The notes beneath the pieces are model-generated. The model was not told where the DNA came from and did not search any database. It worked only from the letters and a program-made list of their open reading frames with translations. From a virus (lineage: Duplodnaviria > Heunggongvirae > Uroviricota > Caudoviricetes), in IMG/VR virus record IMGVR_UViG_2778261420_000001, positions 1-24,802 of that record: DNA of 24,802 nt; one strand, written 5' to 3'. Position 1 is the first letter of the stretch. Each line of letters begins with the position of its first letter. Below are positions 1,714 through 24,698 of the stretch, piece by piece. The position numbers and the translations under genes were made by a program.

Positions 1714-4536
1714 ATGACGACAGAGTACATCAGGGACTGGCAACAACCGCGCCACGCAGTGGGGCGTGAAGGAACGGGGATCCCCGCACCTGAATCCGCG
1801 CTTTCCTCCTGGCTGGATGCCTACCAGGCAGAGAACGAGCGCCGACAGGAAAAGGCTGATGCGGCGTTCTCTGCCACGCCACTGGGCAACCTGATTAATA
1901 AAAGCCTGGACGCACAGGAAAAACAGGACAAAACCATCACGCTGGCAGGAGACGCCAGAAGACAGGCACGCGGCGCGGTGGATGAAGCCATGGCCTCGCT
2001 GCGCCTGCTGCCGTCCTATCTGCGCGATCCGCTTATTCGCCACCTCTCCTTCCTGCGCAAAAAACAGGAAGTCGATCGCCGGAAAGGCAAAAAGAGCTGG
2101 CAGGCAGAACGCTATGCACGCGGAACCCTGCGCAAAATATTCGAACGTCTGGATCGCACTGACGGACACTGGCTGACACCGGGTTATCGCTCCCTTGCCG
2201 GACGCGAACGCCTGGACGATTTGCTTTACCTGCCGCAGCTCAACAAACACCAGATACAGACGCTGGCCACCATGACGGCGGCGATGTTCAGCAGCACCTT
2301 CGAAAAACTCTGCGATGGCTTTGGTGCGACTGATGGCGAGCTGACCATGGATGTAACGCTGAAGGCGTATCAGATGCTGGCCCGCATGGCGTTACACCTG
2401 CACGCCATGCCTCCGCATTATGACGCACTGACAACAGACAAAGGCCGGAGGAACGAACCAGACACGGAGCTGCTGCCGGGCGCAATCCTTCGCCTGACCT
2501 GTGCGGAATGGTGGAAACGCAAACTGTGGCTGTTACGTTGCGAGTGGAGAGAAGAACAACTCCGCGCCGCCTGTCTGGTTTCCAGAAAAACATCGCCCTA
2601 TCTGAGCCAGGATGCGTTAAGCGAGTTTCGCGCACAGCGCGAGAAAACACGCGATTTCCTGAAAAGTTTCATGCTGGAAAACGAAGACGGGTTCACGATT
2701 GATCTTGAGACAGTGTATTACGCGGGAGTAAGTAACCCGGTTCACCGTAAGGCAGAAATGATGGCCACCATGAAGGGGCTGGAACTTCTGGCCGAAGCCC
2801 GTGGCGACAGAGCGGTGTTTCTGACTGTCACCTGCCCGTCAAAATACCACGCAACAACGGAGAACGGTCATCCGAATCCCAAATGGAACGGGGCCACTAT
2901 GCGCGACTCCAGCGATTACCTGGTTAACTCGTTTTTTGCGGCGGTCCGCAAGAAACTGAACCGCGACGGCCTGCGCTGGTATGGCATCCGCACGGTGGAG
3001 CCTCACCATGACGGCACCGTGCACTGGCATATGATGGTCTTTGCTCATCCGGAAGAAATCGACACCATTGTGTCCCACACCCGCGATATTGCCATTCAGG
3101 AAGATCGTCACGAGCTGGGTGATGATATTACCCCACGCTTTAAGGCAGAGTACGTCGACGGCTCAAAAGGCACACCGACCAGCTACATCGCCACCTACAT
3201 CGGAAAGAACCTGGACAGCCGCGCCGTGGATGGTATCGACCCGAAAACGGGCAAGCCACGCGTTGACCACGAAACCGGAAAATCAATGGCCGAGAGCGTG
3301 GAGCGCGCCATCGGCTGGGCGCGCCTTCACCGGGTCCGCCAGTTCCAGTTCTTTGGCATCCCCTCCCGTCAGGTGTGGCGTGAACTGCGCCGCCTTGCCA
3401 GCCAGATGGCACGCAACCCGGAAGGCCCGCAACGGCTGAAGGATGACGCAATGGATGCAGTGCTCGCTGCCGCTGATGCCGGGTGTTTTGCCTCCTACAT
3501 AGAGAAACAGGGCGGCGTACTTGTTCCACGCCAAGACTACCTGATTCGCACCGCCTACGACCTCGCAGATGAGCTGAACGATTACGGCGAACAGAGCGTA
3601 CAGATTTACGGGATCTGGTCACCACTCATCGGGGAGTCTTCCCGTGTGTGCACACATCCGGATAACTGGAAGCTGGTAAGACGTAAACCGGAAGCGGAAG
3701 ACAGCGCCCGCGAAAATGGTTTTGACCTTCAGGGCGGCCCTGCCGCCCCTTGGACTCGTGGCAATAACTGTCCCCGTGTACAGGAAACGGACAACAACGG
3801 GACAGAACAGCCGGAAGAACGGCCAGCACCGTGGCCGCAGCTCCCTGACGGCGTTGAAGTGAACGAATGGATGCGCTCACTGAAACGGCACGAACGCCGG
3901 GCGCTGATGCGTTCGCTTCGTGACAAACAGGCAAAAAACAGCAGTGATGAAATGCAGAACTGGACACAGAGCCGCAAACAGTCACAGCCTTTGCCTGATA
4001 ACCACGAATTACTCGCTAAAGAATGGCGGGAATCTGCCGAATCTCTCGGCCTGCATATCGGTGAACAGCAGATGCAGCACCTGTTACGGGGCGGCAGCCT
4101 GTACGTTGACGGCAGCATCATTGCACCACAGGGATTTGAAATTGTACGTAAACCGGATACCCGCCCGGACAGCCGAATCACGCAGCTCTGGCAGCACCTG
4201 AGCCGTAATCACGGCGTAAGCAGCACGGAGATCCGCCATAATCCGGTCGCCAGCTATCTGGCACAACTGGGGGCATCAGACCCCGAAGCCGCCGCACGTC
4301 TGGCATCCACACTTCAGCAGGACCAGAACACCATGAAAACCCCCGTTACCGTGCTTTCTGACATGCTGCGCGCCATCCGTGACGCAGAGCACGCACAGAG
4401 AATCAGTGAAACAACTGAACGCGCCCGCCGCAAAGCAGACCTGCTGCGGGGTGGCCTGACCAGTAGAAACAAAAAACAGACAGAAACGGGATTCACAAAT
4501 CCCGTAAATGAGCAAAAAACGCGCCGCGATATATGA
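1714..4536 (+). CDS. A: Replication initiation protein, phage gpA family (rolling-circle nickase), 940 aa with a long C-terminal extension
   Basis: Track ORF contains hallmark gpA motifs: VFLTVTCPSKYHA, the HWHMMVF histidine pair, and SYIATYIGKNLD carrying the catalytic tyrosine region. It is roughly 180 aa longer than P2 A as I recall it; the extra C-terminus is rich in Q/R/E/K. Confidence 0.9.
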   Translation: MTTEYIRDWQQPRHAVGREGTGIPAPESALSSWLDAYQAENERRQEKADAAFSATPLGNLINKSLDAQEKQDKTITLAGDARRQARGAVDEAMASLRLLPSYLRDPLIRHLSFLRKKQEVDRRKGKKSWQAERYARGTLRKIFERLDRTDGHWLTPGYRSLAGRERLDDLLYLPQLNKHQIQTLATMTAAMFSSTFEKLCDGFGATDGELTMDVTLKAYQMLARMALHLHAMPPHYDALTTDKGRRNEPDTELLPGAILRLTCAEWWKRKLWLLRCEWREEQLRAACLVSRKTSPYLSQDALSEFRAQREKTRDFLKSFMLENEDGFTIDLETVYYAGVSNPVHRKAEMMATMKGLELLAEARGDRAVFLTVTCPSKYHATTENGHPNPKWNGATMRDSSDYLVNSFFAAVRKKLNRDGLRWYGIRTVEPHHDGTVHWHMMVFAHPEEIDTIVSHTRDIAIQEDRHELGDDITPRFKAEYVDGSKGTPTSYIATYIGKNLDSRAVDGIDPKTGKPRVDHETGKSMAESVERAIGWARLHRVRQFQFFGIPSRQVWRELRRLASQMARNPEGPQRLKDDAMDAVLAAADAGCFASYIEKQGGVLVPRQDYLIRTAYDLADELNDYGEQSVQIYGIWSPLIGESSRVCTHPDNWKLVRRKPEAEDSARENGFDLQGGPAAPWTRGNNCPRVQETDNNGTEQPEERPAPWPQLPDGVEVNEWMRSLKRHERRALMRSLRDKQAKNSSDEMQNWTQSRKQSQPLPDNHELLAKEWRESAESLGLHIGEQQMQHLLRGGSLYVDGSIIAPQGFEIVRKPDTRPDSRITQLWQHLSRNHGVSSTEIRHNPVASYLAQLGASDPEAAARLASTLQQDQNTMKTPVTVLSDMLRAIRDAEHAQRISETTERARRKADLLRGGLTSRNKKQTETGFTNPVNEQKTRRDI

Positions 4537-4583
4537 AGCGCGCACAAAACAGGCGAAAACGGGATTTAAAAATCCCGTAAACG
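4469..4583. repeat. Two ~40-bp direct repeats, each containing an 8-4-8 palindrome ACGGGATT-N4-AATCCCGT; candidate operator or centromere (parC-like) site
   Basis: Copy 1 core ACGGGATTCACAAATCCCGT at ~4486-4505 (inside the last codons of gene A) and copy 2 ACGGGATTTAAAAATCCCGT at ~4558-4577, with similar flanks (AAACAG.C..AAACGGG ... CCCGTAAA). Copy 2 lies about 35 bp upstream of the parM-like start codon. Confidence 0.5.
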
Positions 4584-4612
4584 ATTAATTAATCAACATA
4601 AGGAAAAGCGAC

Positions 4613-5572
4613 ATGAAAATTTGTATCGACGACGGCTCCACCAACATCAAGCTGGCATGGACTGAGAACGGCGAACGCCGCAACGCCATCAGCCCGAACA
4701 GCTTCAAGTCGGAATGGTCTGCGCCGTTCGGTGGCACGCAGCCCGCGAACTACATGCTTGATGGCGTGCGCTATGGTTTTGATCCGGTCAGCGATCGCTT
4801 TGTCCAGACGACCGACACGCAATACCAGTACAGCGATGTGAATGTAATCGCCATTCACCACGCGCTGGTCAAATCAGGCATCACACCACAGGAAGTGGAT
4901 GTGGTTGTTACCCTGCCACTGAGCGAGTATTTCGACACAAACGCACAGCCGGACATGGCCAACATCAACCGCAAAAAAGCGAACGTTATGCGCCCGGTGG
5001 AGTACCAGAACGGCGAGGCATTCACTATCCGTAACGTGCGGGTTATGCCTGAATCCATTCCGGCTGGTTTTAAGGCACTGGCTGACATGAGTCCGTTTGA
5101 ATCCCTGCTGATTGTGGATTTGGGCGGAACCACGCTGGATGTGGCAAAGGTTCAGGGGCAACTGGCAGGTATCAGCCAGGTGTTTTGCGATCCACACGTA
5201 GGCGTTTCTCTGATGGCCGATGCCGTGCTGTCGGTGATGGCCACCAACGGTATGCGCACCAGTCACCACATCGCCAATACCATTATCGAACATCGCCACG
5301 ATGAAGCCTGGCTGCGCCAGCACATCCACAATGACGCGCATTACGCCAGCCTGATGGCAGTTATTCGTGAAAAGGAGGAAACACTGAAACAACGCGTGAT
5401 CCGCGCGCTGGCGGTTTTTTCGGGTTACGGGCGGGTGATGGTTGTAGGTGGAGGAGCGGAGATTGTGGCACCCGCTATCCGCGAAGCCTGCGGAGTTAAT
5501 GCGACTTTCATCGCGGACGGGGTGCCACAGTTTGCTCTGGTTAATGGGCTGTACGCAATGGACAAGGAGTAA
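4613..5572 (+). CDS. parM: ParM/StbA-family actin-like segregation ATPase (319 aa)
   Basis: Track ORF aligns along its whole length, from memory, with plasmid R1 ParM: N-terminal IDDGSTNIKL phosphate motif, YSDVNV..HHAL, VMPESIPAG, L.IDLGGTTLD, VMV.GGGAE and C-terminal LVNG.Y. Shine-Dalgarno AAGGAAAAG upstream. Confidence 0.9.
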   Translation: MKICIDDGSTNIKLAWTENGERRNAISPNSFKSEWSAPFGGTQPANYMLDGVRYGFDPVSDRFVQTTDTQYQYSDVNVIAIHHALVKSGITPQEVDVVVTLPLSEYFDTNAQPDMANINRKKANVMRPVEYQNGEAFTIRNVRVMPESIPAGFKALADMSPFESLLIVDLGGTTLDVAKVQGQLAGISQVFCDPHVGVSLMADAVLSVMATNGMRTSHHIANTIIEHRHDEAWLRQHIHNDAHYASLMAVIREKEETLKQRVIRALAVFSGYGRVMVVGGGAEIVAPAIREACGVNATFIADGVPQFALVNGLYAMDKE

Positions 5573-5576
5573 ATCA

Positions 5577-5891
5577 ATGACGACACCAACCAGACGGATA
5601 AGTTTCTATCTGAAGCCCGCCGTCGTCAAGAGCGAACGGGAGGCGTGCAGTTACCTCGACAGCCTGCCAGCCTCCGAACGCAGCCGCGCACAACGCGCGG
5701 CTTTTCTGGCTGGACTGGCTCTTATAAAACGCACCCCCGCGTTGGCGTATTCGCTGGCAGAATGGTCAGAAGACGAAATACGGATGCCACCGCTACCAGT
5801 ACAGCCTGAAAAACCGGCGCAACCAGCAGCAGACAGCGCCCCCCATATGCAGCAGGTGAAAAAGAATATTCAGGCGTTTTTCCCGAAGTGA
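5577..5891 (+). CDS. parR: ParR-like ribbon-helix-helix centromere-binding protein / operon repressor (104 aa)
   Basis: ATG at 5577 with AAGGAG Shine-Dalgarno embedded in the end of parM, 4 nt after the parM stop. N-terminal segment ISFYLKP...SYLDSLPASERSRAQRAAFLAGLAL resembles R1 ParR (…TLDSIPQGERSRLNRAALTAGLAL). The track ORF 5448-5891 extends upstream into parM and is taken to be an artefact. Confidence 0.8.
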   Translation: MTTPTRRISFYLKPAVVKSEREACSYLDSLPASERSRAQRAAFLAGLALIKRTPALAYSLAEWSEDEIRMPPLPVQPEKPAQPAADSAPHMQQVKKNIQAFFPK

Positions 5892-5905
5892 AAACAGGAG
5901 TAACT

Positions 5906-6193
5906 ATGTCCACCATTACCAAAGAATGGTTACAACGTAAAATCACAGAGTTTAAATCGTGGCGCGAAGACATCCCGTTCGGTCTTGATGAAGACGATCA
6001 CAATATGTTAATCGCACTGGAAATCGCACTTGCATCACTGGAAGCAGAGCCAGTGGCATGGATGCACGCAAATAATCCTATTGGAATACCGGCGATAACA
6101 AGAAGTAAAGATGTTGCAGACAGCTGGCGCTCTAAGGGATGGAATGTATTGCCTCTTTATTCACTGACCCGCCCCATCAATTTATGCCATTAA
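5906..6193 (+). CDS. Hypothetical protein (95 aa), cargo gene of unknown function
   Basis: In-frame ATG at ~5906 preceded by CAGGAG Shine-Dalgarno, starting about 15 nt after the parR stop. It sits at the point where the sequence becomes visibly AT-richer. No recognised domain. Confidence 0.55.
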   Translation: MSTITKEWLQRKITEFKSWREDIPFGLDEDDHNMLIALEIALASLEAEPVAWMHANNPIGIPAITRSKDVADSWRSKGWNVLPLYSLTRPINLCH

Positions 6194-6204
6194 TGGAAGT
6201 AATC

Positions 6205-6564
6205 ATGATGAAAGATAATTCCGGAAGCCAGCGTGCATCAGTTGCAGTTATGGTAATGATTAAATTTGTGAAACAGTACACCGGAAAGCCAATCTCACTC
6301 CGGCAATTAAGCAAAGAAACCGTTTCACTGTCATATCTGGAGCAAATATTCAGATATTTACGGGAAAGTAGCTTGGTAAAAGCCACACGCGGCCCGGGTG
6401 GTGGATATATCCCGACAAAAGAAAATTACAGTGTTGGTGATATTGTCCGGGCAATGAAATGTTCCGGATTATATACACAGCACGTTATTCTGGCTGCACT
6501 GGATAATATTTCTTTAACCAGCCTGCAGGAAGACACAAATTATCAGTTGTCTGCCATTGAATAA
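6205..6564 (+). CDS. Rrf2-family-like winged-helix transcriptional regulator (about 119 aa; start uncertain, 6184-6208)
   Basis: Contains the Rrf2 wHTH signature ISLRQLSKETVSLSYLEQIFRYLRESSLVKATRGPGGGY. No Cys cluster, so probably not Fe-S binding. AT-rich relative to its flanks and directly abuts the preceding ORF. Confidence 0.6.
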   Translation: MMKDNSGSQRASVAVMVMIKFVKQYTGKPISLRQLSKETVSLSYLEQIFRYLRESSLVKATRGPGGGYIPTKENYSVGDIVRAMKCSGLYTQHVILAALDNISLTSLQEDTNYQLSAIE

Positions 6565-6569
6565 GAAAA

Positions 6570-6610
6570 CCCGGAACGGGTGCGCAAATTCTTTGTGCGC
6601 CCGTTCCGGG
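6570..6610. terminator. Long GC-rich hairpin between convergent genes (bidirectional intrinsic terminator candidate)
   Basis: CCCGGAACGGGTGCGCAAA - TTC - TTTGTGCGCCCGTTCCGGG: a near-perfect ~19-bp inverted repeat starting 6 nt after the Rrf2-like stop and ending about 20 nt before the convergent Ogr-like gene's stop. Confidence 0.6.
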
Positions 6611-6632
6611 TTGGACAAGCGAAGCGCGTCAG

Positions 6633-6890
6633 CTATCCGGCCTGCAACAACTCCAGAGCCATTTGTTTTTCTTCCGGACGCATCCGCTCAATCAACAGCT
6701 TTAACACACCATTCTCCAGCCCGCTGGGCACCAGTGTGTGCGAGTAGGTCAGATTCATCACCCAGGTATGTCCGCACTCGAGACGGGTGCAACGGTAATA
6801 CACATCAGCAAACTGATCGGTTTTCCAGGCTGTTTTCTCAATCACTGCATGTGCACCGCAGCAATGACATCGCGCTTTCTGTCTGCGCAT
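6633..6890 (-). CDS. Ogr/Delta-family zinc-finger late-gene transcriptional activator (about 85 aa)
   Basis: Start moved to the internal ATG (MRRQKARCHCCG...) which has a GGAGGTGGAAA Shine-Dalgarno. Cys spacing C-x2-C-x22-C-x4-C matches P2 Ogr / P4 Delta exactly, and there is a ...VPSG... segment like Ogr. Confidence 0.7.
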   Translation of the reverse strand: MRRQKARCHCCGAHAVIEKTAWKTDQFADVYYRCTRLECGHTWVMNLTYSHTLVPSGLENGVLKLLIERMRPEEKQMALELLQAG

Positions 6891-6955
6891 TTTCCACCTC
6901 CCGGAACAGCGTTTTACTGCCACCGATTTTACCCGCTCTTTCCCCATACCGCACA

Positions 6956-7990
6956 TCACTCCATGGGTTCATCAAAATCAAGAATAAATTTCACCTCCCC
7001 CAGTCGTCTGATATCCGGGTCGCTGTTGATCCCCTCCATAATCAGGCGGCGCATCGGGATAACCTCATCCCTGTAATATGCCTCGCGGGATTTCAGTGGG
7101 TCACCAAGCCCGGCCGTATTTGCGGGAATGATGCCGGCAAGTCCGGGTGGGAAACGGTGCGCGACGAGCTGATCCTGGGCACTGATGGTTTTTATATTCA
7201 GGAACTCATCTTTTGTACCTGAATCCCCGATAGGGATCACCTTAACGCCTTCTTTGTCTCCGCCCGGTATATTGATAAACATGGATTTAAAATTGCCCGC
7301 CCCTTTTGACGCCTCTATCTTTTTACGGAATTCCGCCTCGAGCTCGGGATCCATGTCCGGGTCAGTGGAATACAGGATATAACCAAGATGTGCGCCGTTC
7401 TTGTAATACTTGCGGCGAAAGCGGGTGGCATCCACATTCAGCATGGCGGATTCCATCCCGTGAATATAATCCGGTACACCGTAAACCTGCTGTTGCGGGT
7501 CATAAATGGCCACGAACACCACTTCGCCTGGCGGGTAAACGAGATCTTCCAGTGCCGCCTGCACAATCACCGTGCCACCCTCGTTGTTACGCCGCAGGTA
7601 CAGCGACGGCAGTGTGTGCAGGCGCACTACCAGACCGAAGCCATTGCGCACTTTAAGCAGACCCATATCCCCGAATATCAGCAGATTGGTCACCGCTGCC
7701 GCCATGGCGGCGTGTGTCATACCACCGCCCCCCCTAAAACCCTGCATGATCATATTGACGCGCGCACGCAATACCGCGCCGTGATACGGTGCGATATTGG
7801 CCAACATAGCGAGATCCATGCGCTCAATGGGCGGCGTGTACCAGCCGTTATAGCCATCCCAGAGCGAGCCGTAATAACAGCCCCATGCAGCGACTGGTTC
7901 CGGGTCACCAAATTCAATAAACGTCATTTTGCTGGCTGTTTTTTTTGCCACGCCATCGTGTAGCACGGGGGATTTTTTCTTTTTACTCAT
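6956..7990 (-). CDS. Q: Portal protein, P2 gpQ-like (344 aa)
   Basis: Same length as P2 Q and positioned immediately downstream of, and overlapping by 8 nt, the terminase ATPase gene on the same strand, as in P2. Confidence 0.85.
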   Translation of the reverse strand: MSKKKKSPVLHDGVAKKTASKMTFIEFGDPEPVAAWGCYYGSLWDGYNGWYTPPIERMDLAMLANIAPYHGAVLRARVNMIMQGFRGGGGMTHAAMAAAVTNLLIFGDMGLLKVRNGFGLVVRLHTLPSLYLRRNNEGGTVIVQAALEDLVYPPGEVVFVAIYDPQQQVYGVPDYIHGMESAMLNVDATRFRRKYYKNGAHLGYILYSTDPDMDPELEAEFRKKIEASKGAGNFKSMFINIPGGDKEGVKVIPIGDSGTKDEFLNIKTISAQDQLVAHRFPPGLAGIIPANTAGLGDPLKSREAYYRDEVIPMRRLIMEGINSDPDIRRLGEVKFILDFDEPME

Positions 7991-9770
7991 CTGACAGGAT
8001 CCATGTTGATTTGCGCTTGTGCTTATAGTTCAGGGGTTCATTACTTGCGGCATGAGCTATGGCAAAGAAGATGTCTGCGTGCCCGGTTTTTTCGCTACGT
8101 TCGGCGGTGAAAGTGACTTTATTGCCACTGTTAGTGGACTCCTGACGAATGGCCAGGAACGATGCCGGAATATCTGTGGCTTCTTCATCCCACTCAATAC
8201 GGTTGGCGTAAATCAGATCCAGCATCTTCATCACCAGGCGGTTTTTGGATTCAACGCTGTAATGAATGGCCACTGTTTCACGGCGGGCAAATCCCTGAAC
8301 CAGCTCAAAGACACCGTAGCCAAGACCGGTGACGTCAATGCCGATAAATGTCATGTTATAGCGCGCCTTAATGCTGCGGATACGCTCTGCCATAAACTGG
8401 AATGACATACTGCGCCAGTGGTGTTTTTCCAGCACGCGGAATCGTTCTGCCGAAACCAGCGGCGGTGCCAGCACCACAAACGTGGCGTTATCGCCGGAGC
8501 GCGCAGGGTCAAAGCCACCCCACACCTCACGGTTACCAAATGGCATGGGTTCTTCCGGGTGAAAATCCTCCCACGTACTGACATCAACGCCACAGCGCAC
8601 GAGGTCATCGAATTTAAAGACGCTCTCTTTGTCATCCACAAACACACACATAAACAGCATATTGAACGCTGTTTCGTTGTATCGCTCGCGCAGCTCGTTG
8701 ATGTCAGCAAGGTTAAAGCCGCCGGCAATGGCATCTTCCAGCGTAACCACATAGCGCCACTGACCGTCCGGGCATTCGCGCCCGCCATCACGCAGTTCAT
8801 CAAAGGACGGAAACTCAACCCCTTTTCGTTTCGGATCACCTTTGCGCCATTCATCGCCAGACCAGAACGGATAACCCTGGTGTGTTTTGGATGACGGCGT
8901 GGAGAAATAGGTAATGCGCCAGTGTTTATGGGTGGCCATCCCTGACGCCACTTCATTGAGACGGCGAAAACCGGGGATCCACAGGTATTCGTCAATGTAC
9001 AGGTGGCCGCTGTTTGACTGTGCCGTGTTGCTGTTGGTCGCCAGAAAATACAGTTCAGCCAAATTACTTAACTTAACCGGATTGCCTTTAATGGGAATGC
9101 CAAACTCTGTTTGTGCAATTTTTACAATATAAGTACGGAACACTTCGGCCTGACGTTTTGATGCCGATAAAAATATCTGTGTGTCGCCGGTTAATACCGC
9201 ATCTTCAAACGCCTCAAACGCGAAGTAATACGTCGCCCCAATCTGACGGGATTTAAGCAGGTTGCGTACACGGCGGAATTTGTTTTCACGCAGGCGCAAC
9301 TGATAAGCAAACAACTTCTTCGTAAACGGCTCAAAACTTTCAGCAGTCAGTCCGGAAACGTCATTAGTTTTGCGGGGACGCTCTTTCTTACCTGCACCTT
9401 TTTCTCCGCGTTCTTCTTTTCCATAACGGCCCGGCTGGGGGATGTCCACTCCCATTCGCGCAATCTCAGCCATTCGTTCCGTGTGCTTGTTTCTGACCGA
9501 CATTAGTTTGACGTGATGACCAATCAGGCGGTCGAGTTCATCGTGTTCTTCCGGCGTTTTATGGTCACGCTCCGCCAGTACAGCGAGACGCCGGGCGATA
9601 ACATCCTCCACACCTTCCGTATTGAGCTGCGTGTACCACTCAAACTTTGTCGCCCAGTAATAAACAATTCGCGGGCTGTTCAGTCCGAGTTTCTTTTGTA
9701 TTTCTTTTGGTGTGTGCCTTTTCAGATAGAGCGATTTTGCAGCAGCAATCACCTCATCAGAATACGCCAT
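7983..9770 (-). CDS. P: Terminase large (ATPase) subunit, P2 gpP-like (595 aa)
   Basis: Shares the gpP-type segments KSRQIGATY.FA.EAF, GMAT...W..TYFSTPS, VWGG.DP.R.GD...FV..APP and GYGVFELVQ. Transcribed divergently from the O-N-M-L operon, as in P2. Confidence 0.9.
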   Translation of the reverse strand: MAYSDEVIAAAKSLYLKRHTPKEIQKKLGLNSPRIVYYWATKFEWYTQLNTEGVEDVIARRLAVLAERDHKTPEEHDELDRLIGHHVKLMSVRNKHTERMAEIARMGVDIPQPGRYGKEERGEKGAGKKERPRKTNDVSGLTAESFEPFTKKLFAYQLRLRENKFRRVRNLLKSRQIGATYYFAFEAFEDAVLTGDTQIFLSASKRQAEVFRTYIVKIAQTEFGIPIKGNPVKLSNLAELYFLATNSNTAQSNSGHLYIDEYLWIPGFRRLNEVASGMATHKHWRITYFSTPSSKTHQGYPFWSGDEWRKGDPKRKGVEFPSFDELRDGGRECPDGQWRYVVTLEDAIAGGFNLADINELRERYNETAFNMLFMCVFVDDKESVFKFDDLVRCGVDVSTWEDFHPEEPMPFGNREVWGGFDPARSGDNATFVVLAPPLVSAERFRVLEKHHWRSMSFQFMAERIRSIKARYNMTFIGIDVTGLGYGVFELVQGFARRETVAIHYSVESKNRLVMKMLDLIYANRIEWDEEATDIPASFLAIRQESTNSGNKVTFTAERSEKTGHADIFFAIAHAASNEPLNYKHKRKSTWILSDE

Positions 9771-9857
9771 AAATAAACCTCACCTGCTGATGCAATTTTA
9801 ATTTATGCATTTTCAGCAAAGGCTTTTTTAAAAACGAATATCGCTTTTCGGTATTTT

Positions 9858-9881
9858 TCGGATATATACGCATATCCGAAA
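9858..9881. promoter_or_regulatory. Perfect 9-bp inverted repeat TTCGGATAT-N6-ATATCCGAA in the divergent P/O late-promoter region
   Basis: Located in the ~190-bp AT-rich intergenic region between the divergently transcribed terminase and scaffold genes. A second dyad, ATGCA-N11-TGCAT, lies at ~9795-9815. Candidate binding sites for the late activator or another regulator. Confidence 0.3.
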
Positions 9882-9964
9882 GTACCGGAAATTAATCAGA
9901 TGACGACATTTTTATTTCTCCGTTAAATAACGCCAGTTTAATTTTTATCAGCGGGTTAATTCAG

Positions 9965-10855
9965 ATGTCGAAACTGAAAACAGACTGGGTGGTCGTAGCC
10001 ACTTCAGGCCCCACCATCGACGGTCGGGAAATTGATCCAAAGTGGCTGACGGATGCCGCCGAGGTTTATAACCCGGACGAACACACCGCCATGCTCTGGC
10101 CGTTTCATGCCAGCGCCGGCTGGCGTGCTTTCACCAATAACTATGGTCTTGTTGATGCACTGAAGGCGGAAAAAGTCGGTGATAAAGTGCAGCTGAAAGC
10201 CCGCCTGATACCCAACCGCTTTCTGACCGAAGCCAACGAGGCTGGACAAAAACTTTTCACCTCCATAGAGGTAAAGGAAAACTACCTGGGAACAGGCAAA
10301 TTCTTTGTATCCGGTATCGCTGTGACTGACACACCGGCCAGCATCAACACCACCCGCCTGCAATTTTCGCAGGGAGATTCCATTCACATGGGGAATGCAG
10401 AAGAACTGAATTTCACGCTGCAGTCTGACGACGAGCAGGCCAAACGCAGTTTCTTTTCCGGCCTTTTCTCCGTGGGACGCAACAAACAGGAAAACGATAT
10501 GAACGAAAAACAGTTCAGCCAGTTGATGGACGCTATCAACAAAACCGGCGAACGCCTGGACAAACTGGAAGAAAACGTCGCGCAGTTCAGCGCGAAGGAT
10601 GCCCCGAAAGATACCTGTGATAACAAGCCGGAAGGCAGCACCGGCGATCAGGGGCAGGACAACGCAGAACAGAACAACAAGGACGACAAAACCTTCACGC
10701 TGACCACCGAGCAGGGCGAAAAGCTGTTCTCCACAGTGAACGCCATCGCGGAGAAGGTTACCAGTATGGAAACCGCATTTGCTGAACTCAGCAAGGACGC
10801 CACGAAGCTGCCGGGCAACAATCCGGCCGGTGGCGAAACTTTTAACCTGGTGTAA
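9965..10855 (+). CDS. O: Capsid scaffolding protein, P2 gpO-like (296 aa)
   Basis: First gene of the rightward head operon; the N-terminal region resembles gpO (...VDGREI...L.AEK...; ...GIAVTDTPAS...) and the C-terminal half is a charged coiled-coil-like stretch. Confidence 0.8.
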   Translation: MSKLKTDWVVVATSGPTIDGREIDPKWLTDAAEVYNPDEHTAMLWPFHASAGWRAFTNNYGLVDALKAEKVGDKVQLKARLIPNRFLTEANEAGQKLFTSIEVKENYLGTGKFFVSGIAVTDTPASINTTRLQFSQGDSIHMGNAEELNFTLQSDDEQAKRSFFSGLFSVGRNKQENDMNEKQFSQLMDAINKTGERLDKLEENVAQFSAKDAPKDTCDNKPEGSTGDQGQDNAEQNNKDDKTFTLTTEQGEKLFSTVNAIAEKVTSMETAFAELSKDATKLPGNNPAGGETFNLV

Positions 10856-10869
10856 CCGGAGAGAACGCA

Positions 10870-11883
10870 ATGAACATGACACCAGAAGCACAAAAGCTGG
10901 TTAATCAGTACATCAGCGAACTGCAAAAAACATTCAGTGACTGCGGGAAATCAAGCGATCGTTTCTTTTCGCTGACCGAGCCACGCAGTATTGCTCTGCG
11001 TAAAGCCCTGCTGGAAAGCACGGAGTTTCTGAGTTTCATCACCTGCATGGACGTTCCGCACCCGCAGGGGCAGGTCGTCACCGTGGGCGAATCCACACTG
11101 CGCACCGGTCGCGTGAAAAGCGGTCGTTTCGCTAAAGGTTCGGGCATCAAAGGCAACGAATTTAAACTCGTTGAAACTGATTCCTGCTGCGTGATCACCT
11201 GGGAACAACTCGCCATCTGGGCGAATGCCGGCAGCCCGCAGGAATTTTTCAACCTGATGAACTCCGCCGCCGTTACCAACTTTGCGCTGGATATGCTGCG
11301 CATTGGCTTTAACGGTAAAACAGCAGCGGAAAACTCTGACCCGGAAAGTCACCCGAACGGCGAAGACGTCAACATCGGCTGGCATGAAATCGCCAAAAAG
11401 TGGGGAGAACAGCCCGGCAATACCTCCCGTATTCTGACAGACGCCGTTACCCTGGGCGAAGGCGGCGATTATGTCGGTCTTGATGCCATGGCCTCAGACC
11501 TGATCCGCACTTACATCCCGGCACAGTATCACAACGACCCACGACTTACCGTACTGGTCGGCGCAGACCTTGTGGCTGCTGAAGAACTACGCCTCTACAA
11601 CAAAGAGGATAAGCCTACCGAAAAAGTGGCCGCACAGTTGCTGACGAAGAACATTGCAGGCCGCAAGGCCATCATTCCGCCGTTTATGCCGGGCAAACGT
11701 ATGGTGGTGACCATGCTGCCAAACCTGCAGATCCTGACGCTGAAAGGCTCCCGCCGCCGCAAGGCAGAAGATGTGGGCGATCGCAAACAGTTCGAAAACT
11801 CATACTGGCGTTACGAGGGGTACGCCCTGGGCGATCCGGATTTATATGCTGCCGTAGATGAGTCTGCGGTCACCATCGCCTGA
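10870..11883 (+). CDS. N: Major capsid protein, P2 gpN-like (337 aa)
   Basis: GGAGAG Shine-Dalgarno then ATG. Shares gpN-type motifs (GFNGKTAAENSD..., GEGGDYVGLDAM, NDPRLTVLVG). Lies between the scaffold and terminase small-subunit genes. Confidence 0.85.
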   Translation: MNMTPEAQKLVNQYISELQKTFSDCGKSSDRFFSLTEPRSIALRKALLESTEFLSFITCMDVPHPQGQVVTVGESTLRTGRVKSGRFAKGSGIKGNEFKLVETDSCCVITWEQLAIWANAGSPQEFFNLMNSAAVTNFALDMLRIGFNGKTAAENSDPESHPNGEDVNIGWHEIAKKWGEQPGNTSRILTDAVTLGEGGDYVGLDAMASDLIRTYIPAQYHNDPRLTVLVGADLVAAEELRLYNKEDKPTEKVAAQLLTKNIAGRKAIIPPFMPGKRMVVTMLPNLQILTLKGSRRRKAEDVGDRKQFENSYWRYEGYALGDPDLYAAVDESAVTIA

Positions 11884-11900
11884 TAAACGGAGCGCACGGT

Positions 11901-12611
11901 ATGCCAACGCCAATGCAGCGACAACGTGCCCGACAGATGGATGAGCGCCGTGCGGCGCTCATGACCAGAACGGACGGGAGCGCCATCAGCACAGAGAGTC
12001 AGCACATTAAGCTGCTGGCACTGGATAACGACATCAGACAACTGCACAACATGGAGCTGCTGTCTGACAAGCTGGAATTCAAACGGAACACGCTGCTGCC
12101 CCGCTGGCTGCCACACGCACAGGCTTATCTGGAGGGGGAACGCGTCTATCAGAATCCCATTCTGGTGTACTGCATCATCTGGCTGTTCGATACCGGGCAG
12201 TTTGAGATGGCGCTGCGGTGGGCTGACATTGCCATTGAGCAGGGGCAAAAGACGCCGGAGAACTTCAAAAGCGAGCTGCCAACGTTTGTGGCCCATTTCA
12301 TTCTTGAATGGGCAGAAACCGAAGCTGAACGCGGGAACAGTATCGCGCCATATTTTCAGCAGGTGTTTGAAAAAATCCGTGACAAATGGCGCGTGAATGA
12401 ACGCCTTGCTGCCCGCTACTGGCGCTTTGCAGGCGTCCTGCTGCTGCGCGGCGATGACGGTAAACCGCTGGCCAGTGCAATTAACGATCCGGAGAGACTG
12501 CAACAGGCCGACCAGTGTCTGGAACAGGCTGCCTGGCTGCATCCAAAAATTCAGGTGAAAACCCTGCGCCAGCGCATTGCCGCAAGACTGCGCGCGTTGC
12601 AGGGCACGTAA
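11901..12611 (+). CDS. M: Terminase small / endonuclease subunit, P2 gpM-like (236 aa)
   Basis: Conserved Q-P-O-N-M-L synteny, gpM-like size, and an N-terminal MPTPMQRQRARQM... segment similar to P2 M as I recall it. Confidence 0.8.
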   Translation: MPTPMQRQRARQMDERRAALMTRTDGSAISTESQHIKLLALDNDIRQLHNMELLSDKLEFKRNTLLPRWLPHAQAYLEGERVYQNPILVYCIIWLFDTGQFEMALRWADIAIEQGQKTPENFKSELPTFVAHFILEWAETEAERGNSIAPYFQQVFEKIRDKWRVNERLAARYWRFAGVLLLRGDDGKPLASAINDPERLQQADQCLEQAAWLHPKIQVKTLRQRIAARLRALQGT

Positions 12612-12709
12612 ACGACTCCCAACAACCGGGCGGGCGCGGTGGAGGTGTGCCGGCAAAAGCCATCAGCACACTGCGGAAACCGGTCAGCCCGCCTTTCCCC
12701 GGAGTGAGC

Positions 12710-13204
12710 ATGTTTGACGGGAAAAGCATTCACTATCAGCAGGCCATTATTCAGAACGATGGATTCTGGCCGGATATTGATGCCGGCGATTTTGAAAAGA
12801 GCCGCAGCATCCCCGCCGTCACGTCACACGAAACGGTGCTGACGGCGCTGCTTTGCGCGGTAACAGAGATTAACACTGAACTGGCTGCACGCCGTGAATA
12901 CTGGCAGGAACAGGGCTACATCCGGGCCGCTGATATTCCGGGTTACACCGTGTTGCAACCAGAGCCGCGCAATACGGATGCACAACCTGAACAGATGCAG
13001 AACCACATTACAGCACTGTACACCAAGGCTGTGTATGCACGCGCAAAGGCTGATCTTTTGCCGGAATCTGCCAGCGTGGGGCGACGCGAGGCGCAGCCCT
13101 CATCAGAAGCCAGCGAGAGCCGCCGGACGTTGCTGGCTGAAGCGGCAATGGCGGTGCGGGCGCTGCTGGGCCGACCGCGTGCATCCATCGCGCTGATTGA
13201 TTAA
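12710..13204 (+). CDS. L: Head completion/stabilisation protein, P2 gpL-like (164 aa)
   Basis: Start taken at the ATG after a GGAGTGAG Shine-Dalgarno; the track ORF begins upstream at 12515. Contains a gpL-like FWPDIDAGDF motif (P2: FFPDIDPK). Confidence 0.8.
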   Translation: MFDGKSIHYQQAIIQNDGFWPDIDAGDFEKSRSIPAVTSHETVLTALLCAVTEINTELAARREYWQEQGYIRAADIPGYTVLQPEPRNTDAQPEQMQNHITALYTKAVYARAKADLLPESASVGRREAQPSSEASESRRTLLAEAAMAVRALLGRPRASIALID

Positions 13205-13213
13205 GGAAATGGT

Positions 13214-13687
13214 ATGACGCAACTCGCCAGCCTGACGGCATTCATTGAAAACAATCTGCCGGCACGCGCACGCATTCCGTTCACCAGTGACATGGATGAC
13301 ATAACGCTCCTTCCGTTTACGAAGTCGCTGGGGCACGGGCAGTTATGTACGCAGGTCCGAAAATATACAGCTTTTCTGCGATGGGACGCATGGCCCTATC
13401 GTCAGCTCAATCCGGATTTGGTGTTTTCTCTGGTTGAAGCCTGGCTGGCAGACAACGCCGGCGACCTGCGCCAGCGCCTGGCACCGGATGCGCCAGCCGT
13501 TGACGTCGAAGTGGATGATGAAAATGAAGTTGCATGGTTGGAAATCAGTCTGCCGCTGGTTGATCCCATCACCCTGGTTGAGGATGAAAACGGCCCCATC
13601 CCCAGAGGCGGGAAACGTTACCAGCTGGAAAAGCCTGAAATCTGGGTGGCTCAGGCGCATCAGCTTCACTGTCAGGTGATGCCATGA
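13214..13687 (+). CDS. Hypothetical virion protein (157 aa), possibly a head-tail joining component
   Basis: AAGGAAA Shine-Dalgarno then ATG, tightly packed between gpL and the next gene with an ATGA stop/start overlap. Acidic C-terminal half. Function inferred from position only. Confidence 0.45.
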   Translation: MTQLASLTAFIENNLPARARIPFTSDMDDITLLPFTKSLGHGQLCTQVRKYTAFLRWDAWPYRQLNPDLVFSLVEAWLADNAGDLRQRLAPDAPAVDVEVDDENEVAWLEISLPLVDPITLVEDENGPIPRGGKRYQLEKPEIWVAQAHQLHCQVMP

Positions 13688-14397
13688 CGCGCCCAGTGAT
13701 TAACGAGTCACAACTCCGGCAGGTTCGTCGCGCCATCAGAGAGGCAGAACTTCCGCCGGCAAAGGCCAGAAAGCTGCTGGTTCGCATTGCGAAATACGGC
13801 CTGATACCGGTTGCACGACGCAATGTGAAAGCACAGCGAACACCGGAGGGGGCAGCCTGGGCACCACGAAAAAGACCGGATAAAGCCAGCGGCAGGTATA
13901 AAAACAAAATGCTGCTGGGACTGCCGAAACTGCTGGCCATCAGGGTTGACGGCAGCGGGAAAAGTGTCCGCCTTTTCTTCAAAAAAGGGGATTACAACAC
14001 CGGCTCTCATGGTGGGGCGGTCGCGTGGGTGCAACAGCACGGCGCAACCATCAAAGGCCGCGCCACAAAACGCCGGGACAGCGAAGCCATGCGCACCCGT
14101 CCCGCCACACGACGGCAGGCAGAACGCCTTCTTTCTCTGGGCTTTCGCGCCCCCGTCGGCGCAGTCAGCAAAAAAACCGGACGCAGGGGACGCAGAAAGC
14201 CTTCTCTGAAATGGATTATGGAAAACATGAGTATGGCGCAGGCCGGACTGGTGATCAGCATTCTGAAAGGCGAGCAGAAAAAACGTGTATGGGAAATCAA
14301 AATCCCCTCCCGCGCATTTCTGGGAGCCAGCGATGCTGAATTTGCCCGCATTCTGGAAGCGCAGCTGCGCAGCCTGCATTACGGCGGCACGAGATAA
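13684..14397 (+). CDS. Putative virion morphogenesis / tail completion protein (237 aa)
   Basis: Translationally coupled to the previous ORF and lying between the head module and the sheath-like gene. Basic, Arg/Lys-rich protein. Assignment is positional. Confidence 0.4.
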   Translation: MTRPVINESQLRQVRRAIREAELPPAKARKLLVRIAKYGLIPVARRNVKAQRTPEGAAWAPRKRPDKASGRYKNKMLLGLPKLLAIRVDGSGKSVRLFFKKGDYNTGSHGGAVAWVQQHGATIKGRATKRRDSEAMRTRPATRRQAERLLSLGFRAPVGAVSKKTGRRGRRKPSLKWIMENMSMAQAGLVISILKGEQKKRVWEIKIPSRAFLGASDAEFARILEAQLRSLHYGGTR

Positions 14398-14416
14398 CAA
14401 AATCAGGAGACAAACC

Positions 14417-15565
14417 ATGACATGGCCATCTGTCACGATTGAACAGTACAACACATTCAGCAGTTCACCGGACGGCGTGGAAAATACGCTGCTGTTTGTG
14501 GGCAATGCACAAAACAACAAAGGTAAGGTTCTGCCGGTTAATACCAACAGCGATCTGGATGAACTGCTGGGAACAAACGCCAGCCCGCTGAAGAACTTCC
14601 TTCAGTCTGCGCTGACCAATGCCGGACAGAATGCCTTTTTCTATGTTGCCGTTCTGCCGGAAGCCGGCAAAGGCAAAAGTGTAGCGCCAGCCTACCAGGT
14701 ATGGCAGAACGCCATACTGGCGGCTCAGGAAACTGTATCAGTTGAAGGCGTGGTGATCACCGAGCCGGTCAGCACGAAGGATGACATCAACGCCATACAG
14801 GCGTTACGTCAGACCATCATCAATAAATATCAGCGCCGCATCTGGTTCATCCTGACCATCGCCGCCAACGACAACAGTAAAACCTGGGCGGAATACGTTG
14901 CCGAACTGACCGCGCTACAGAAAGGCATTGCTGCTCCGCAGGTCATGCTGGTTCCGGAGATTTTTGGATTTGAACCGGGCGTTCTTGCCGGTCGCCTGTG
15001 TAACAGCGCTGTTACCATTGCTGACAGTCCGGCACGTGTGGCAACCGGGCCCCTGTCCGCACTGAAAACCACAGAACGCCCGAAAGACAGCACAGGGCAG
15101 GCAATTGATCTCGACACTCTGCAGGCACTGGCAACCGCCCGCTACAGCGTGCCCATGTGGTATGCCGACTATGACGGCCTTTACTGGGCTGACGGTGTAA
15201 CACTTGAGGTGGAAGGCGGGGACTACAACGTCATTGAGCATGTCCGCATTGCTGATAAGGTGGCGCGCCGCGTGCGGCTGATGGCCATCCCCAAGATTGC
15301 CGACCGCTCGCTGAACAGCACGCCGGGCAGCATTGCCGCACATGAAACGCTGTTTGCCCGCCCACTGCGTGCCATGGCGAAATCCATGCAAATTAACGGC
15401 ATCACGTTTCCGGGCGAAGTGAAATCGCCCCGGAAAGGCGACGTGGTTATCACCTGGCAGGACGAAAAGACGGTCAGCATCAGCATTGTCGTCCGCCCTT
15501 ACGCCTGCCCTAAAACCATCAAAGTGGGCATTCAGCTGGATAAATCTCTGGAGGAAAACGCATGA
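14417..15565 (+). CDS. Putative tail sheath protein (382 aa), not P2 FI-like
   Basis: CAGGAG Shine-Dalgarno then ATG at ~14417; the track ORF starts further upstream at 14285. It is the first large gene of the tail cluster and is followed by a tube-sized gene, chaperones and tape measure. I could not align it to P2 FI from memory. Confidence 0.5.
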   Translation: MTWPSVTIEQYNTFSSSPDGVENTLLFVGNAQNNKGKVLPVNTNSDLDELLGTNASPLKNFLQSALTNAGQNAFFYVAVLPEAGKGKSVAPAYQVWQNAILAAQETVSVEGVVITEPVSTKDDINAIQALRQTIINKYQRRIWFILTIAANDNSKTWAEYVAELTALQKGIAAPQVMLVPEIFGFEPGVLAGRLCNSAVTIADSPARVATGPLSALKTTERPKDSTGQAIDLDTLQALATARYSVPMWYADYDGLYWADGVTLEVEGGDYNVIEHVRIADKVARRVRLMAIPKIADRSLNSTPGSIAAHETLFARPLRAMAKSMQINGITFPGEVKSPRKGDVVITWQDEKTVSISIVVRPYACPKTIKVGIQLDKSLEENA

Positions 15566-16017
15566 CGACCCGCATTAACGGCATGGCGTTTGACACTTTT
15601 ATCGGTGGAACGGATATCCATGTGAAAAGCATCTCACTGGACATCAGCGATGAAAGCGCCGTTGCCAAAACCCGTGGCATCCCTGACGGCAAACTGCGCG
15701 GCCCTGTCAGTGCCGAAGGTGAAATCGAAATGAGTACCCGCAGCTTTAACCAGCTCGGGGAAGTGGCTGCTCAGGCGGGATCGTGGCGTGACCTGCCGCC
15801 AATGGATTTTGTGTTTTACGCCAACACGGGCACTGAAGAAATCCGCGTTGAAGCCTTCGGTTGTGAGCTGATGCTTTCCGGCCTGTTAAGCATTGACACC
15901 GAAAGCGCAGATCTGACCACGCACAAAATCAAGTACGTGGTGGCAAGCCCTGACTTTGTGCGTATCAACGGCGTGCCCGTTCTCTCAGAGAACGACGTGC
16001 GCGGACTGATGGGGTGA
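15562..16017 (+). CDS. Putative tail tube protein (151 aa)
   Basis: ATGA overlap with the sheath-like gene; size and position are typical of a contractile-tail tube protein. Confidence 0.45.
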   Translation: MTTRINGMAFDTFIGGTDIHVKSISLDISDESAVAKTRGIPDGKLRGPVSAEGEIEMSTRSFNQLGEVAAQAGSWRDLPPMDFVFYANTGTEEIRVEAFGCELMLSGLLSIDTESADLTTHKIKYVVASPDFVRINGVPVLSENDVRGLMG

Positions 16018-16020
16018 ACC

Positions 16021-16317
16021 ATGCAGGAGCATGAGCGCACCATTATCACCCTGGGCATTCTGGGTGGAATCGCTGCCGCAAGTCGGGTGCTGGCTGGCGC
16101 AGAGCCGATTACGTTGCGGTTGTTTGTGGGTCGAACCCTGCTGGGGAGCGCGCTGGGTGTTTCTGCCGCTGCCCTGCTGGTTCGTTACCCGAACCTTGAC
16201 CCACTGGCCATTGCCGGCGCAGGCACTGCAATGGGCGTTGCCGGTTACCAGATTGTTGAAATCTTCCTGCGTCATATGCGCCGGAAGCTGGGCGAGAAAG
16301 AGAACAAAGAGGAGTAA
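16021..16317 (+). CDS. Holin-like small membrane protein (98 aa)
   Basis: Three predicted hydrophobic helices (IITLGILGGIAAASRVLAG, TLLGSALGVSAAALLV, LAIAGAGTAMGVAGYQIV) followed by a charged C-terminus (RHMRRKLGEKENKEE); lies immediately upstream of the endolysin. Confidence 0.55.
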   Translation: MQEHERTIITLGILGGIAAASRVLAGAEPITLRLFVGRTLLGSALGVSAAALLVRYPNLDPLAIAGAGTAMGVAGYQIVEIFLRHMRRKLGEKENKEE

Positions 16318-16322
16318 CAGCA

Positions 16323-16430
16323 ATGCTGTCCCGCAGGGAACAAAAAGCTGCTGCCATTGCCTGGAAAATTATCCGGGCACTGTGGTACTGGCTGCGCAAA
16401 CCTCAGCAACCTCATAAGGAGCAAAAATGA
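16323..16430 (+). CDS. Small ORF (35 aa) between holin and endolysin; possible lysis-cassette accessory peptide
   Basis: Not in the supplied track because it is under 60 aa. ATG at ~16323 with a strong AAAGAGGAG Shine-Dalgarno; its stop overlaps the endolysin start (ATGA). Peptide MLSRREQKAAAIAWKIIRALWYWLRKPQQPHKEQK is amphipathic and Trp-rich. Confidence 0.4.
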   Translation: MLSRREQKAAAIAWKIIRALWYWLRKPQQPHKEQK

Positions 16431-16768
16431 AACTCTCCGATAAGCAACAACAATTTACCGTCATGATCGGAAAACTCATCCAGTTTGCCCATCAGCGCGG
16501 TTATGGCCTGACGTTCGGTGAGGCGTACCGCACGCCAGAACAGGCAAAACTCAACGCACAAAAGGGATCCGGCATTGCCAACAGCCTGCACTGCCAGCGG
16601 CTGGCCGTGGATTTTAATCTGTTTATTAACGGTGAATATCAGACCCACACAGAGGCCTACCGCGAGCTGGGCGAGTACTGGGAATCCCTTGGTGGCGCAT
16701 GGGGCGGTCGTTTTAAAAACCGCCCGGATGGCAATCATTTCAGCCTTGAGCACGACGGCGTGCGCTGA
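16427..16768 (+). CDS. Endolysin, peptidase M15-type (VanY-like, probable L-alanyl-D-glutamate endopeptidase), 113 aa
   Basis: AAGGAG Shine-Dalgarno then ATG. Zn-ligand pattern H-x6-D ... H (LHCQRLAVDFNLF ... DGNHFSLEH) and overall size are typical of small M15 phage endolysins. Confidence 0.75.
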   Translation: MKLSDKQQQFTVMIGKLIQFAHQRGYGLTFGEAYRTPEQAKLNAQKGSGIANSLHCQRLAVDFNLFINGEYQTHTEAYRELGEYWESLGGAWGGRFKNRPDGNHFSLEHDGVR

Positions 16769-16774
16769 TTTTAC

Positions 16775-16806
16775 GCTTAATAAGCCTTCCTGCAGGCTTA
16801 TTAAGC
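16775..16806. promoter_or_regulatory. 12-bp-stem inverted repeat GCTTAATAAGCC-N8-GGCTTATTAAGC after the lysis cassette (terminator or protein-binding site)
   Basis: Perfect inverted repeat 7 nt after the endolysin stop and about 27 nt before the chaperone start. The stem is AT-rich and is not followed by a clean T-run, so a regulatory site is as likely as a terminator. Confidence 0.3.
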
Positions 16807-16832
16807 CCTCTTATTCTTGACTTTAAAAGGAA

Positions 16833-23256: not shown

Positions 23257-23258
23257 CA

Positions 23259-23810: not shown

Positions 23811-23816
23811 GAAGTA

Positions 23817-24674: not shown

Positions 24675-24698
24675 TAGAAACTAAATAAGGGGAATATT

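Follow-up and report, generated by a model that had tools for sequence, protein, structure and literature searches.

The interval between gpA and gpQ of P2-family phages was described in the Rousset et al. 2022 study as a cos-proximal cargo hotspot (PMC9122126), where old, tin, and the systems reported by these authors lie beside cos, have low GC content, and are exchanged between related prophages. The present analysis concerns one such locus in a stretch of 24,802 nucleotides (IMG/VR virus record IMGVR_UViG_2778261420_000001), which is referred to as the window and is a P88-like (P2-family) Escherichia coli prophage of hybrid type. The genes of the region follow in the order gpA, parM, parR, cassette, hairpin, 19-mer, ogr, and Q, and the element under study is an AT-rich exchangeable cargo cassette on the plus strand (approximately 5885–6565, from the parR stop codon to the backbone hairpin) with two genes, orf95 and the gene of a shortened Rrf2-type regulator, designated here as mini-Rrf2. 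The cassette is placed between the replication endonuclease and portal genes, adjoins a probable cos, and varies among relatives, while it differs from the known cargo in that homology to old, tin, or the PADLOC families was not found and an own promoter was not detected. As cargo of this hotspot the locus is nothing unusual: cargo of its kind is well known, and the exact arrangement (WP_000974052 with WP_000104417) is already listed, uncharacterised, in the supplementary table of the same study (PMC9122126). What is new is that the regulator gene is no isolated oddity, since sequence comparison places it in a widespread family of truncated, cluster-less IscR-derived proteins present in three unrelated phage architectures.

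Lambdoid morons are another described system to which the cassette can be compared. They share with it the extra DNA of deviant composition inserted between genes that are adjacent in relatives, but of the own promoter and terminator by which morons are recognised the former was not detected here and the latter is lacking, the intergenic gaps being only 14 and 11 nt and the hairpin at the end being a part of the phage backbone. For orf95 the nearest described group is formed by the Eaa/DUF551/Ead-Ea22-type proteins, with which it shares an N-terminal helical hairpin and the motif ALASLEAEPVAW; orf95, however, belongs to a P2-family phage and does not lie in a lambdoid ea or nin region.

Two regulators of the Rrf2 family are the closest counterparts of the second gene. 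CymR is a chromosomal protein with a full-length dimerisation helix and a canonical N-terminus, which works together with CysK. Its structures (PDB 2Y75, 3T8R) have in common with mini-Rrf2 the Rrf2 winged helix, the absence of an iron-sulfur (Fe-S) cluster, and a YLEQ recognition helix, while the CymR wing reads RGAYGGY, histidine occupies the position of IscR S40, and the match to mini-Rrf2 is weaker (9e-8 vs 8e-11 for IscR). With IscR (PDB 4HF0, 4HF1, 4CHU) mini-Rrf2 shares the winged-helix fold, the recognition helix, and the wing, including the equivalents of the base-contacting residues. Nevertheless, IscR comprises 162 amino acids (aa) and mini-Rrf2 only 119, the region of Cys92, Cys98, Cys104, and His107 as well as the segment RLTSKGRYA of IscR are absent from the latter, and, unlike IscR, mini-Rrf2 is encoded by phages in early operons.

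Composition, Edges, and Exchange of the Cassette

The original prediction, made from the DNA letters only, had noticed by eye a drop of base composition at about 5900–6565, and the sliding-window calculation bore this out. At 42.6%, the GC content of 5906–6564 lies below that of the whole window (53.2%), windows of the same size are equally low in only 0.11% of cases, and their minimum (42.2%) starts at position 5859. The GC content at third codon positions is lower as well, namely, 0.43 in orf95 and 0.39 in the Rrf2 gene compared to 0.63–0.66 in gpA, parM, and parR and 0.60–0.61 in ogr and Q.

The edges of the cassette are given by a prophage type found in four E. coli genomes (locus L096), in which the match to the window stops after 5884 and returns at 6566, with 1.07 kb of unrelated cargo (44% GC) in between; since identical flanks surround unrelated cargo, the cassette is delimited to approximately 5885–6565. 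Among 5426 complete E. coli genomes, 1279 matched a query extending from the end of parM through parR, the cassette, and ogr to Q, almost always in the parM/parR part only and with the match ending at 5729 or 5774 inside parR. As homology with most P88-like phages ends at these positions, the variable zone begins in the 3′ third of parR. The pair of cassette genes was matched in 45 genomes only, in 37 of them over most of its length, and the cassette is missing from approximately 97% of the E. coli prophages that have this parMR. Three different local arrangements of the pair were found among relatives. The pair of Escherichia sp. E3659 (L010) is separated from parR by two genes, one of Ead/Ea22 type and one of 65 aa, homology to the window being resumed at 5891, and in Salmonella (L005–L009) a 209-aa minus-strand gene is inserted further to the right, at the ogr stop codon (6633/6635). 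Replacement, absence, and rearrangement bear out the earlier view of a separately acquired module at a variable locus.

Other cargos of parMR-type phages are small lambdoid accessory genes (Ead/Ea22) and unknowns, and PADLOC and Pfam searches of the alternative cargos of relatives revealed nothing that would identify a defence system. The cargo of the L096 type (L096 1930–3000, E. coli ECL27977 type) is composed of a 0.75-kb non-coding leader with a promoter-like TTGACA-17-TAGGAT, an unannotated Cys-rich open reading frame (ORF; MGIKICKNSH...), and a 95-aa protein without assigned function, and this cargo, in contrast to the cassette of the window, has the appearance of a self-contained moron.

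Among E. coli genomes the pair mostly marks a single lineage of hybrid phage rather than behaving as a freely mobile element. The early arm of the window up to the middle of parR is 93–97% identical to P88 and other Xuanwuvirus/Peduoviridae phages and was found in about 1279 of the 5426 E. coli genomes; the late arm (6633–24802, with ogr beside portal Q) is of a different type and was found in only 43 E. coli genomes, and a near match of it was absent among 50,697 deposited phage records. This set of 43 genomes is about the same as the pair-carrying set, from which it differs by the L096 type and by a relative of 79% identity whose cargo is of Ea22 type.

Gene Structure and the Hairpin

Both genes are closely attached to the parMR operon. 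The gaps are 4 nt between parM and parR, 14 nt between parR and orf95, and 11 nt between orf95 and the Rrf2 gene, and both cassette genes possess a Shine-Dalgarno sequence, that of orf95 being AGGAG located 7 nt upstream. A consensus scan did not detect a promoter-like site upstream of orf95, although such a crude scan could miss a weak internal promoter, and a plus-strand terminator-like site was not found from 5179 to the hairpin. The cassette is thus without a detected promoter and without a terminator of its own, and it is not the classical moron as which it was labelled originally.

The hairpin at 6568–6612, read on both strands, has a 21-bp stem (free energy −41.9 kcal/mol, z −6.8). It had been considered as a strong convergent terminator at the end of the two genes, but the U-tract (UUUUCUUAUU) is present on the minus strand only, while the plus strand continues with UUGGAC. 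Thus, it is a canonical intrinsic terminator for ogr and a U-less hairpin for the plus-strand operon. The hairpin is 100% identical next to the different cargo of L096 and next to the 209-aa-gene insertion of Salmonella L005, and, since an exchange of cargo leaves it unchanged, it is part of the backbone. The candidate reading of this hairpin as the terminator of the cassette itself was rejected for both reasons, i.e., the U-tract faces ogr and the structure is retained with other cargo.

Directly after the hairpin an invariant 19-mer, GACAAGCGAAGCGCGTCAG, is located at 6614–6632. It was found with zero mismatches in P88, vB_EcoM-569R5, the O104:H4 prophage, and loci L096, L097, L005, and L010, and in front of each copy there is a hairpin, for which two different sequences occur, while the DNA to the right of the copy is unrelated. 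The cohesive ends of P2-family phages are 19 nt long, and GACAAGCGAAGCGCGTCAG is probably the cos core of the P88-like group, which would make the cassette cos-proximal. The P2 cos 19-mer itself was not matched within 3 mismatches. As the Salmonella insertion lies beyond the 19-mer, both the hairpin and the 19-mer remain on the cassette side. The inserted 209-aa minus-strand gene of L005–L009, which the probable cos core separates from the cassette, has a weak DUF6338 match.

The mini-Rrf2 Protein and Its Relationship to IscR

Profile and structure searches, proposed with the original prediction, were made for both proteins. The second gene (6205–6564, plus strand) encodes a basic protein (pI 9.3) of 119 aa. 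The mechanical ORF list had given it 141 aa, a start that is too early, and the annotation of the Prokaryotic Genome Annotation Pipeline (PGAP) uses the 119-aa start. The call of an Rrf2-like winged-helix regulator was confirmed by the Pfam Rrf2 family (PF02082), matched with E 3.9e-13 and 50.1 bits against a cut-off of 30 over residues 30–112 of the 141-aa ORF and profile positions 2–87 of 132. In NCBIfam the rrf2_super model stayed below its cut-off (53.5 vs 73.3) because the C-terminal half is missing, and the best model was IscR, also below the equivalog cut-offs (TIGR02010 59.3 vs 207.55; PRK10857 46.3 vs 275). The closest solved structures by sequence are those of E. coli IscR (4hf0, 4hf1, 4chu; best E 8e-11). 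The AlphaFold2 model (predicted local distance difference test, pLDDT, 84.6) has as its closest fold apo-IscR 4hf0 with a template modelling score of 0.72, and the top 36 Foldseek matches in PDB were all Rrf2 proteins, so the fold is that of Rrf2 with a partial dimer helix.

The DNA-reading part of IscR is preserved: SLSYLEQ in the recognition helix and RGPGGGY in the wing agree letter by letter with E. coli IscR (S40, E43, Q44; R59–Y65), in which S40, E43, and Q44 are the base-contacting residues (PMC5411485). The sensing part is lost entirely. About 28 alignment columns, which correspond to the Cys-X5-Cys-X5-Cys loop and the first half of the dimerisation helix, are deleted, and the only Cys and the only His of mini-Rrf2 do not occupy an aligned ligand position, so three Cys and one His for a [2Fe-2S] cluster are not available; the ligand motif of IscR is C92QGKGGC98 (PMC5411485). 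The canonical Rrf2 N-terminal motif MxLTxKGRYA is missing too. The gene is under strong purifying selection, its ratio of non-synonymous to synonymous substitution rates (dN/dS) being 0.06 in comparison with the Salmonella copy (9 synonymous and 2 non-synonymous changes).

A Family of Short IscR-Derived Proteins in Temperate Phages

A word-indexed search with the Rrf2 gene returned near-identical relatives and a single homologue of 51% identity, whereas the HMMER search of 1.84 billion representatives revealed about 18 divergent clusters of 95–135-aa proteins which were aligned end to end. Then IMG/VR was scanned with a narrower family alignment, and 177 viral stretches were confirmed, 80 of which were kept as loci, 10 near-identical to the window and 70 more distant. 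All 80 kept loci have the short gene, the ORF calls being mostly of 104–125 aa. Residues S43, Y44, E46, and G63–Y68 are invariant across the short family, and the segment aligned to the C-terminal IscR dimer helix (VLxALDxVxIxxL, with L99 invariant) is the best conserved one outside the winged helix. Named members come from Mixta, Lelliottia, and Klebsiella, and include Klebsiella phage Kp4865-4 and Citrobacter phage Chris1, where the family gene is annotated as “iron-sulfur cluster regulator.” These alignments place the second gene in a coherent family, present in temperate Enterobacterales phages, of short winged-helix proteins derived from IscR. A literature search for Rrf2/IscR-like regulators in phages gave nothing relevant, a description of the family was not found in the library searched, and this short sensor-less IscR-like phage family is apparently undescribed before.

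The family gene is met in three unrelated architectures. In lambdoid phages (L004, L024, L025, L028) it is preceded by O-like and DnaC-like replication genes together with a winged-helix gene of the DUF1627/phrog_630 type, and the nin-type genes come after it. In Rac-like phages (L031, L032, L055, L059, L069, and L098, including Chris1) the leftward operon has it in second position after the repressor, with RecE-type exonuclease, xis, and int immediately downstream. In the present phage the gpA-parMR array closes with it. In each of these settings the gene has the orientation of its operon and is closely spaced with its neighbours, and the operon is expected to be early in lytic development.

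In one of the lambdoid loci (L025 6700–9676) the genes behind that of the short Rrf2 protein are one for a 394-aa protein and two on the minus strand; the 394-aa protein has a weak Swt1-like HEPN match and corresponds to PADLOC candidate PDC-M34B (5e-8), and this may be a defence insert of the nin region.

The orf95 Gene and the Question of a Conserved Pair

The orf95 gene (5906–6193, plus strand) encodes an acidic protein of 95 aa (pI 5.5), which is classified as Eaa/DUF551-N-terminal type. The structural model (pLDDT 86) shows a helical hairpin and then a small alpha/beta domain, with unspecific matches in PDB and uncharacterised phage proteins in BFVD. By sequence it matches phrog_660 and phrog_60 of PHROGs (function unassigned) and is similar to hundreds of prophage proteins which are annotated as Eaa, DUF551, or, mistakenly, valyl-tRNA synthetase. 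The DUF551 domain itself is absent, and the Pfam search gave no match. The dN/dS of orf95 is 0.2–0.8 (the upper value being based on 12 changes).

Originally a functional pairing of the small protein with the regulator had been supposed, and the distribution of the genes speaks against it. An orf95-type gene adjoins the Rrf2 gene in none of the 70 more distant loci and only in the 10 near-identical ones; in a few distant loci a weak orf95 match lies kilobases away on the other strand. In E. coli orf95-type DNA was found in 657 genomes and Rrf2 DNA only in 37 pair-holding genomes, and approximately 620 genomes have orf95-type DNA without the Rrf2 gene. The upstream neighbour of the 51%-identical Rrf2 homologue (L004) was considered as a candidate relative of orf95 and turned out to be not related. 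As judged by these neighbourhoods, orf95 and mini-Rrf2 are independent genes and not a conserved pair; the cassette comprises two genes of lambdoid-early-region type which were brought in as a block. We infer that orf95 is a separate accessory protein common among lambdoid phages and not an obligate partner of mini-Rrf2.

Proposed Explanation and Its Alternatives

In the explanation favoured here the cassette would have been copied from a lambdoid early region as accessory cargo into the hypervariable gpA-gpQ locus and, to judge from its position, would be transcribed as the tail of the gpA-parM-parR early operon. Its products would be made after induction or infection, as those of relatives in the lambdoid PR-type and Rac-like PL-type operons. 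Mini-Rrf2 would be a constitutive, signal-blind DNA-binding protein, as suggested by the fold and the reading head, and its operators may be similar to the type-2 site of IscR, which contains CC; of the type-1 and type-2 sites, apo-IscR binds only the latter (PMC5411485). Because the same reading head is kept in three unrelated phage architectures, a common host target (type-2-like sites of IscR) seems more likely than phage-specific operators, and this is the weakest step. Taken as a whole, i.e., cargo of the hypervariable locus, expressed from the tail of the early operon, with a signal-blind IscR-like DNA-binding protein directed to host-type sites, the explanation is judged to be probable, if only just.

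Several points weigh against it. As the N-terminal motif is lost and the dimer helix is halved, dimerisation and DNA binding could be altered or lost. Recognition helices of the YLEQ type are also present in other Rrf2 subfamilies, for example in CymR, so the specificity cannot be read from the sequence alone. The type-2 box, scanned with the consensus AxxxCCxxAxxxxxxxTAxGGxxxT (as quoted in PMC4169559), was not enriched in the window (1 match vs 3.1 expected) or in 12 related phage loci (11 vs 25 expected), and an operator was not found there; with regard to host targets this result is neutral, neither supporting nor excluding them. Besides, the gpA-gpQ locus is rich in anti-phage systems, many of them missing from current models, and if the parMR promoter is active in lysogens, as it could be, the cassette genes would be expressed there.

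A more specific form of the favoured explanation is that mini-Rrf2 is a sensor-less mimic of apo-IscR, made early and occupying the host type-2 operators regardless of the Fe-S status, and this is regarded as a possible but rather doubtful extension. If it is true, suf would, for example, be activated by the mimic and further genes under IscR control would be reset, the phage would gain control, to its own advantage, of the iron-sulfur homeostasis of the host or of surface and virulence traits governed by IscR, and a virus would have copied only the DNA-reading head of a global host regulator with the sensor discarded. If the family does bind host IscR sites, a link between phage development and the Fe-S/iron regulation of the host would be established.

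The pair, or one of its genes, may instead be an uncatalogued system of anti-phage defence or superinfection exclusion, expressed from the prophage like old and tin of P2 at the same locus. The interval between gpA and gpQ is known as a reservoir of defence systems (PMC9122126), and the cassette is AT-rich and exchangeable; in a study of 2026 machine learning scored 15–32% of the unknown proteins of P2-like phages as antiviral, and phage protection was seen in tests with 6 of 8 unknown loci of P4-like satellites (PMC13586616). Despite these facts neither protein was matched in PADLOC-DB v2 at E ≤ 1, an enzymatic or effector-like domain was found in neither of them, and an own promoter was not detected. 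Moreover, the early lytic operons of lambdoid and Rac-like phages, in which the relatives of both genes lie, are not part of any hotspot, and the alternative cargos of parMR-type phages are small lambdoid accessory genes and not recognisable defence systems. Such a role is considered unlikely.

Also improbable is that mini-Rrf2 serves as a regulator of lysogenic conversion, made by read-through from parMR and mimicking apo-IscR on Fe-S, fimbrial, and other IscR-controlled promoters of the lysogen. The reading head is the same as that of IscR, many of the carrier strains are enterotoxigenic or Shiga toxin-producing (STEC) E. coli isolates, parMR of plasmid R1 is transcribed from its own parC promoter, and 42-nt repeats with 20-bp palindromes are present upstream of parM in the window. 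However, a sigma-70-like promoter was not found in 4400–4612, that is, before parM, and the family members elsewhere are located in PL- and PR-type operons, which are repressed in lysogens. Thus, lysogenic conversion or exclusion, suggested originally as the frequent function of such a layout, is not indicated by the early lytic position of the relatives and by the PADLOC search.

Mini-Rrf2 may also be supposed not to form homodimers and to enter, by means of the remaining half of the helix, mixed dimers with host IscR or another Rrf2 protein, inactivating or retargeting its partner. The strong conservation of the segment aligned to the C-terminal dimer helix, with its invariant L99, and the loss of the N-terminal DNA-backbone motif would be consistent with this, but the DNA-reading residues and the wing are invariant, which a pure poison subunit would not need, and the protein is basic, which makes this role very unlikely. 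That the cassette is only decaying, functionless hitch-hiking DNA is already disfavoured and highly improbable, since the fast evolution of orf95 (dN/dS up to 0.8 on 12 changes) and a deletion starting inside it in one strain stand against the low dN/dS of the Rrf2 gene, a divergent family with invariant motifs, and the absence of damage to either ORF in the copies studied from E. coli, Escherichia sp., and Salmonella (L003, L005–L011, L094, L095). A toxin-antitoxin system was set aside, as a toxin-like fold, co-occurrence in divergent relatives, and an own promoter-operator region were all not found.

The strain with the deletion is E. coli STEC307 (L012), a degraded prophage copy with frameshifted gpA, where the deletion runs from the inside of orf95 (after window position 6091) into the tail-fibre genes and leaves an 84-aa chimeric ORF.

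Layout of the Phage and Minor Observations

A near-identical prophage adjoins pheA in E. coli strain 700481, where PGAP labels orf95 as “hypothetical protein” (WP_000104417) and the Rrf2 gene as “RrF2 family transcriptional regulator” (WP_000974052). In the window the co-directional plus-strand array starts with early genes (1–1707) and continues with the gpA replication endonuclease (1714–4536, one ORF of 940 aa), parM (4613–5572; Pfam StbA_N 1.8e-82, ParM_N 6.3e-69), and parR (5577–5891, 104 aa; Plasmid_stab_B 4.4e-24) upstream of the cassette. Convergent with the cassette is the minus-strand gene of the ogr/Delta-type zinc-finger late activator (6633–6890; Ogr_Delta 1.4e-12), whose start is at 6890 according to PGAP, while the longest ORF extends to 6959. 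It is followed by the portal gene Q (6956–7990) and the terminase gene P (7983–9770), both on the minus strand of the late arm. In the Salmonella relatives L005–L009 (551–3594) gpA is called as two genes of 872 aa and 142 aa.

Two direct repeats of 42 nt (4470–4511 and 4543–4584, 73 nt apart), each with a 20-bp palindrome (ACGGGATTnAnAAATCCCGT), straddle the end of gpA and the gpA-parM gap and are candidate parC (ParR-binding) sites of the phage parMR. The parR gene itself is allelic and mosaic, as follows from the end of the P88-like homology inside it and from its 5′ half being only 78% identical to L010 compared to 97% for parM; perhaps this reflects partition specificity. The two other stretches of low GC content in the window are 23599–24257 (43.2%), which covers the tail-fibre assembly gene and a second tail-fibre gene, i.e., a host-range region, and 9303–9961 (44.3%), which is the divergent P/O promoter region.

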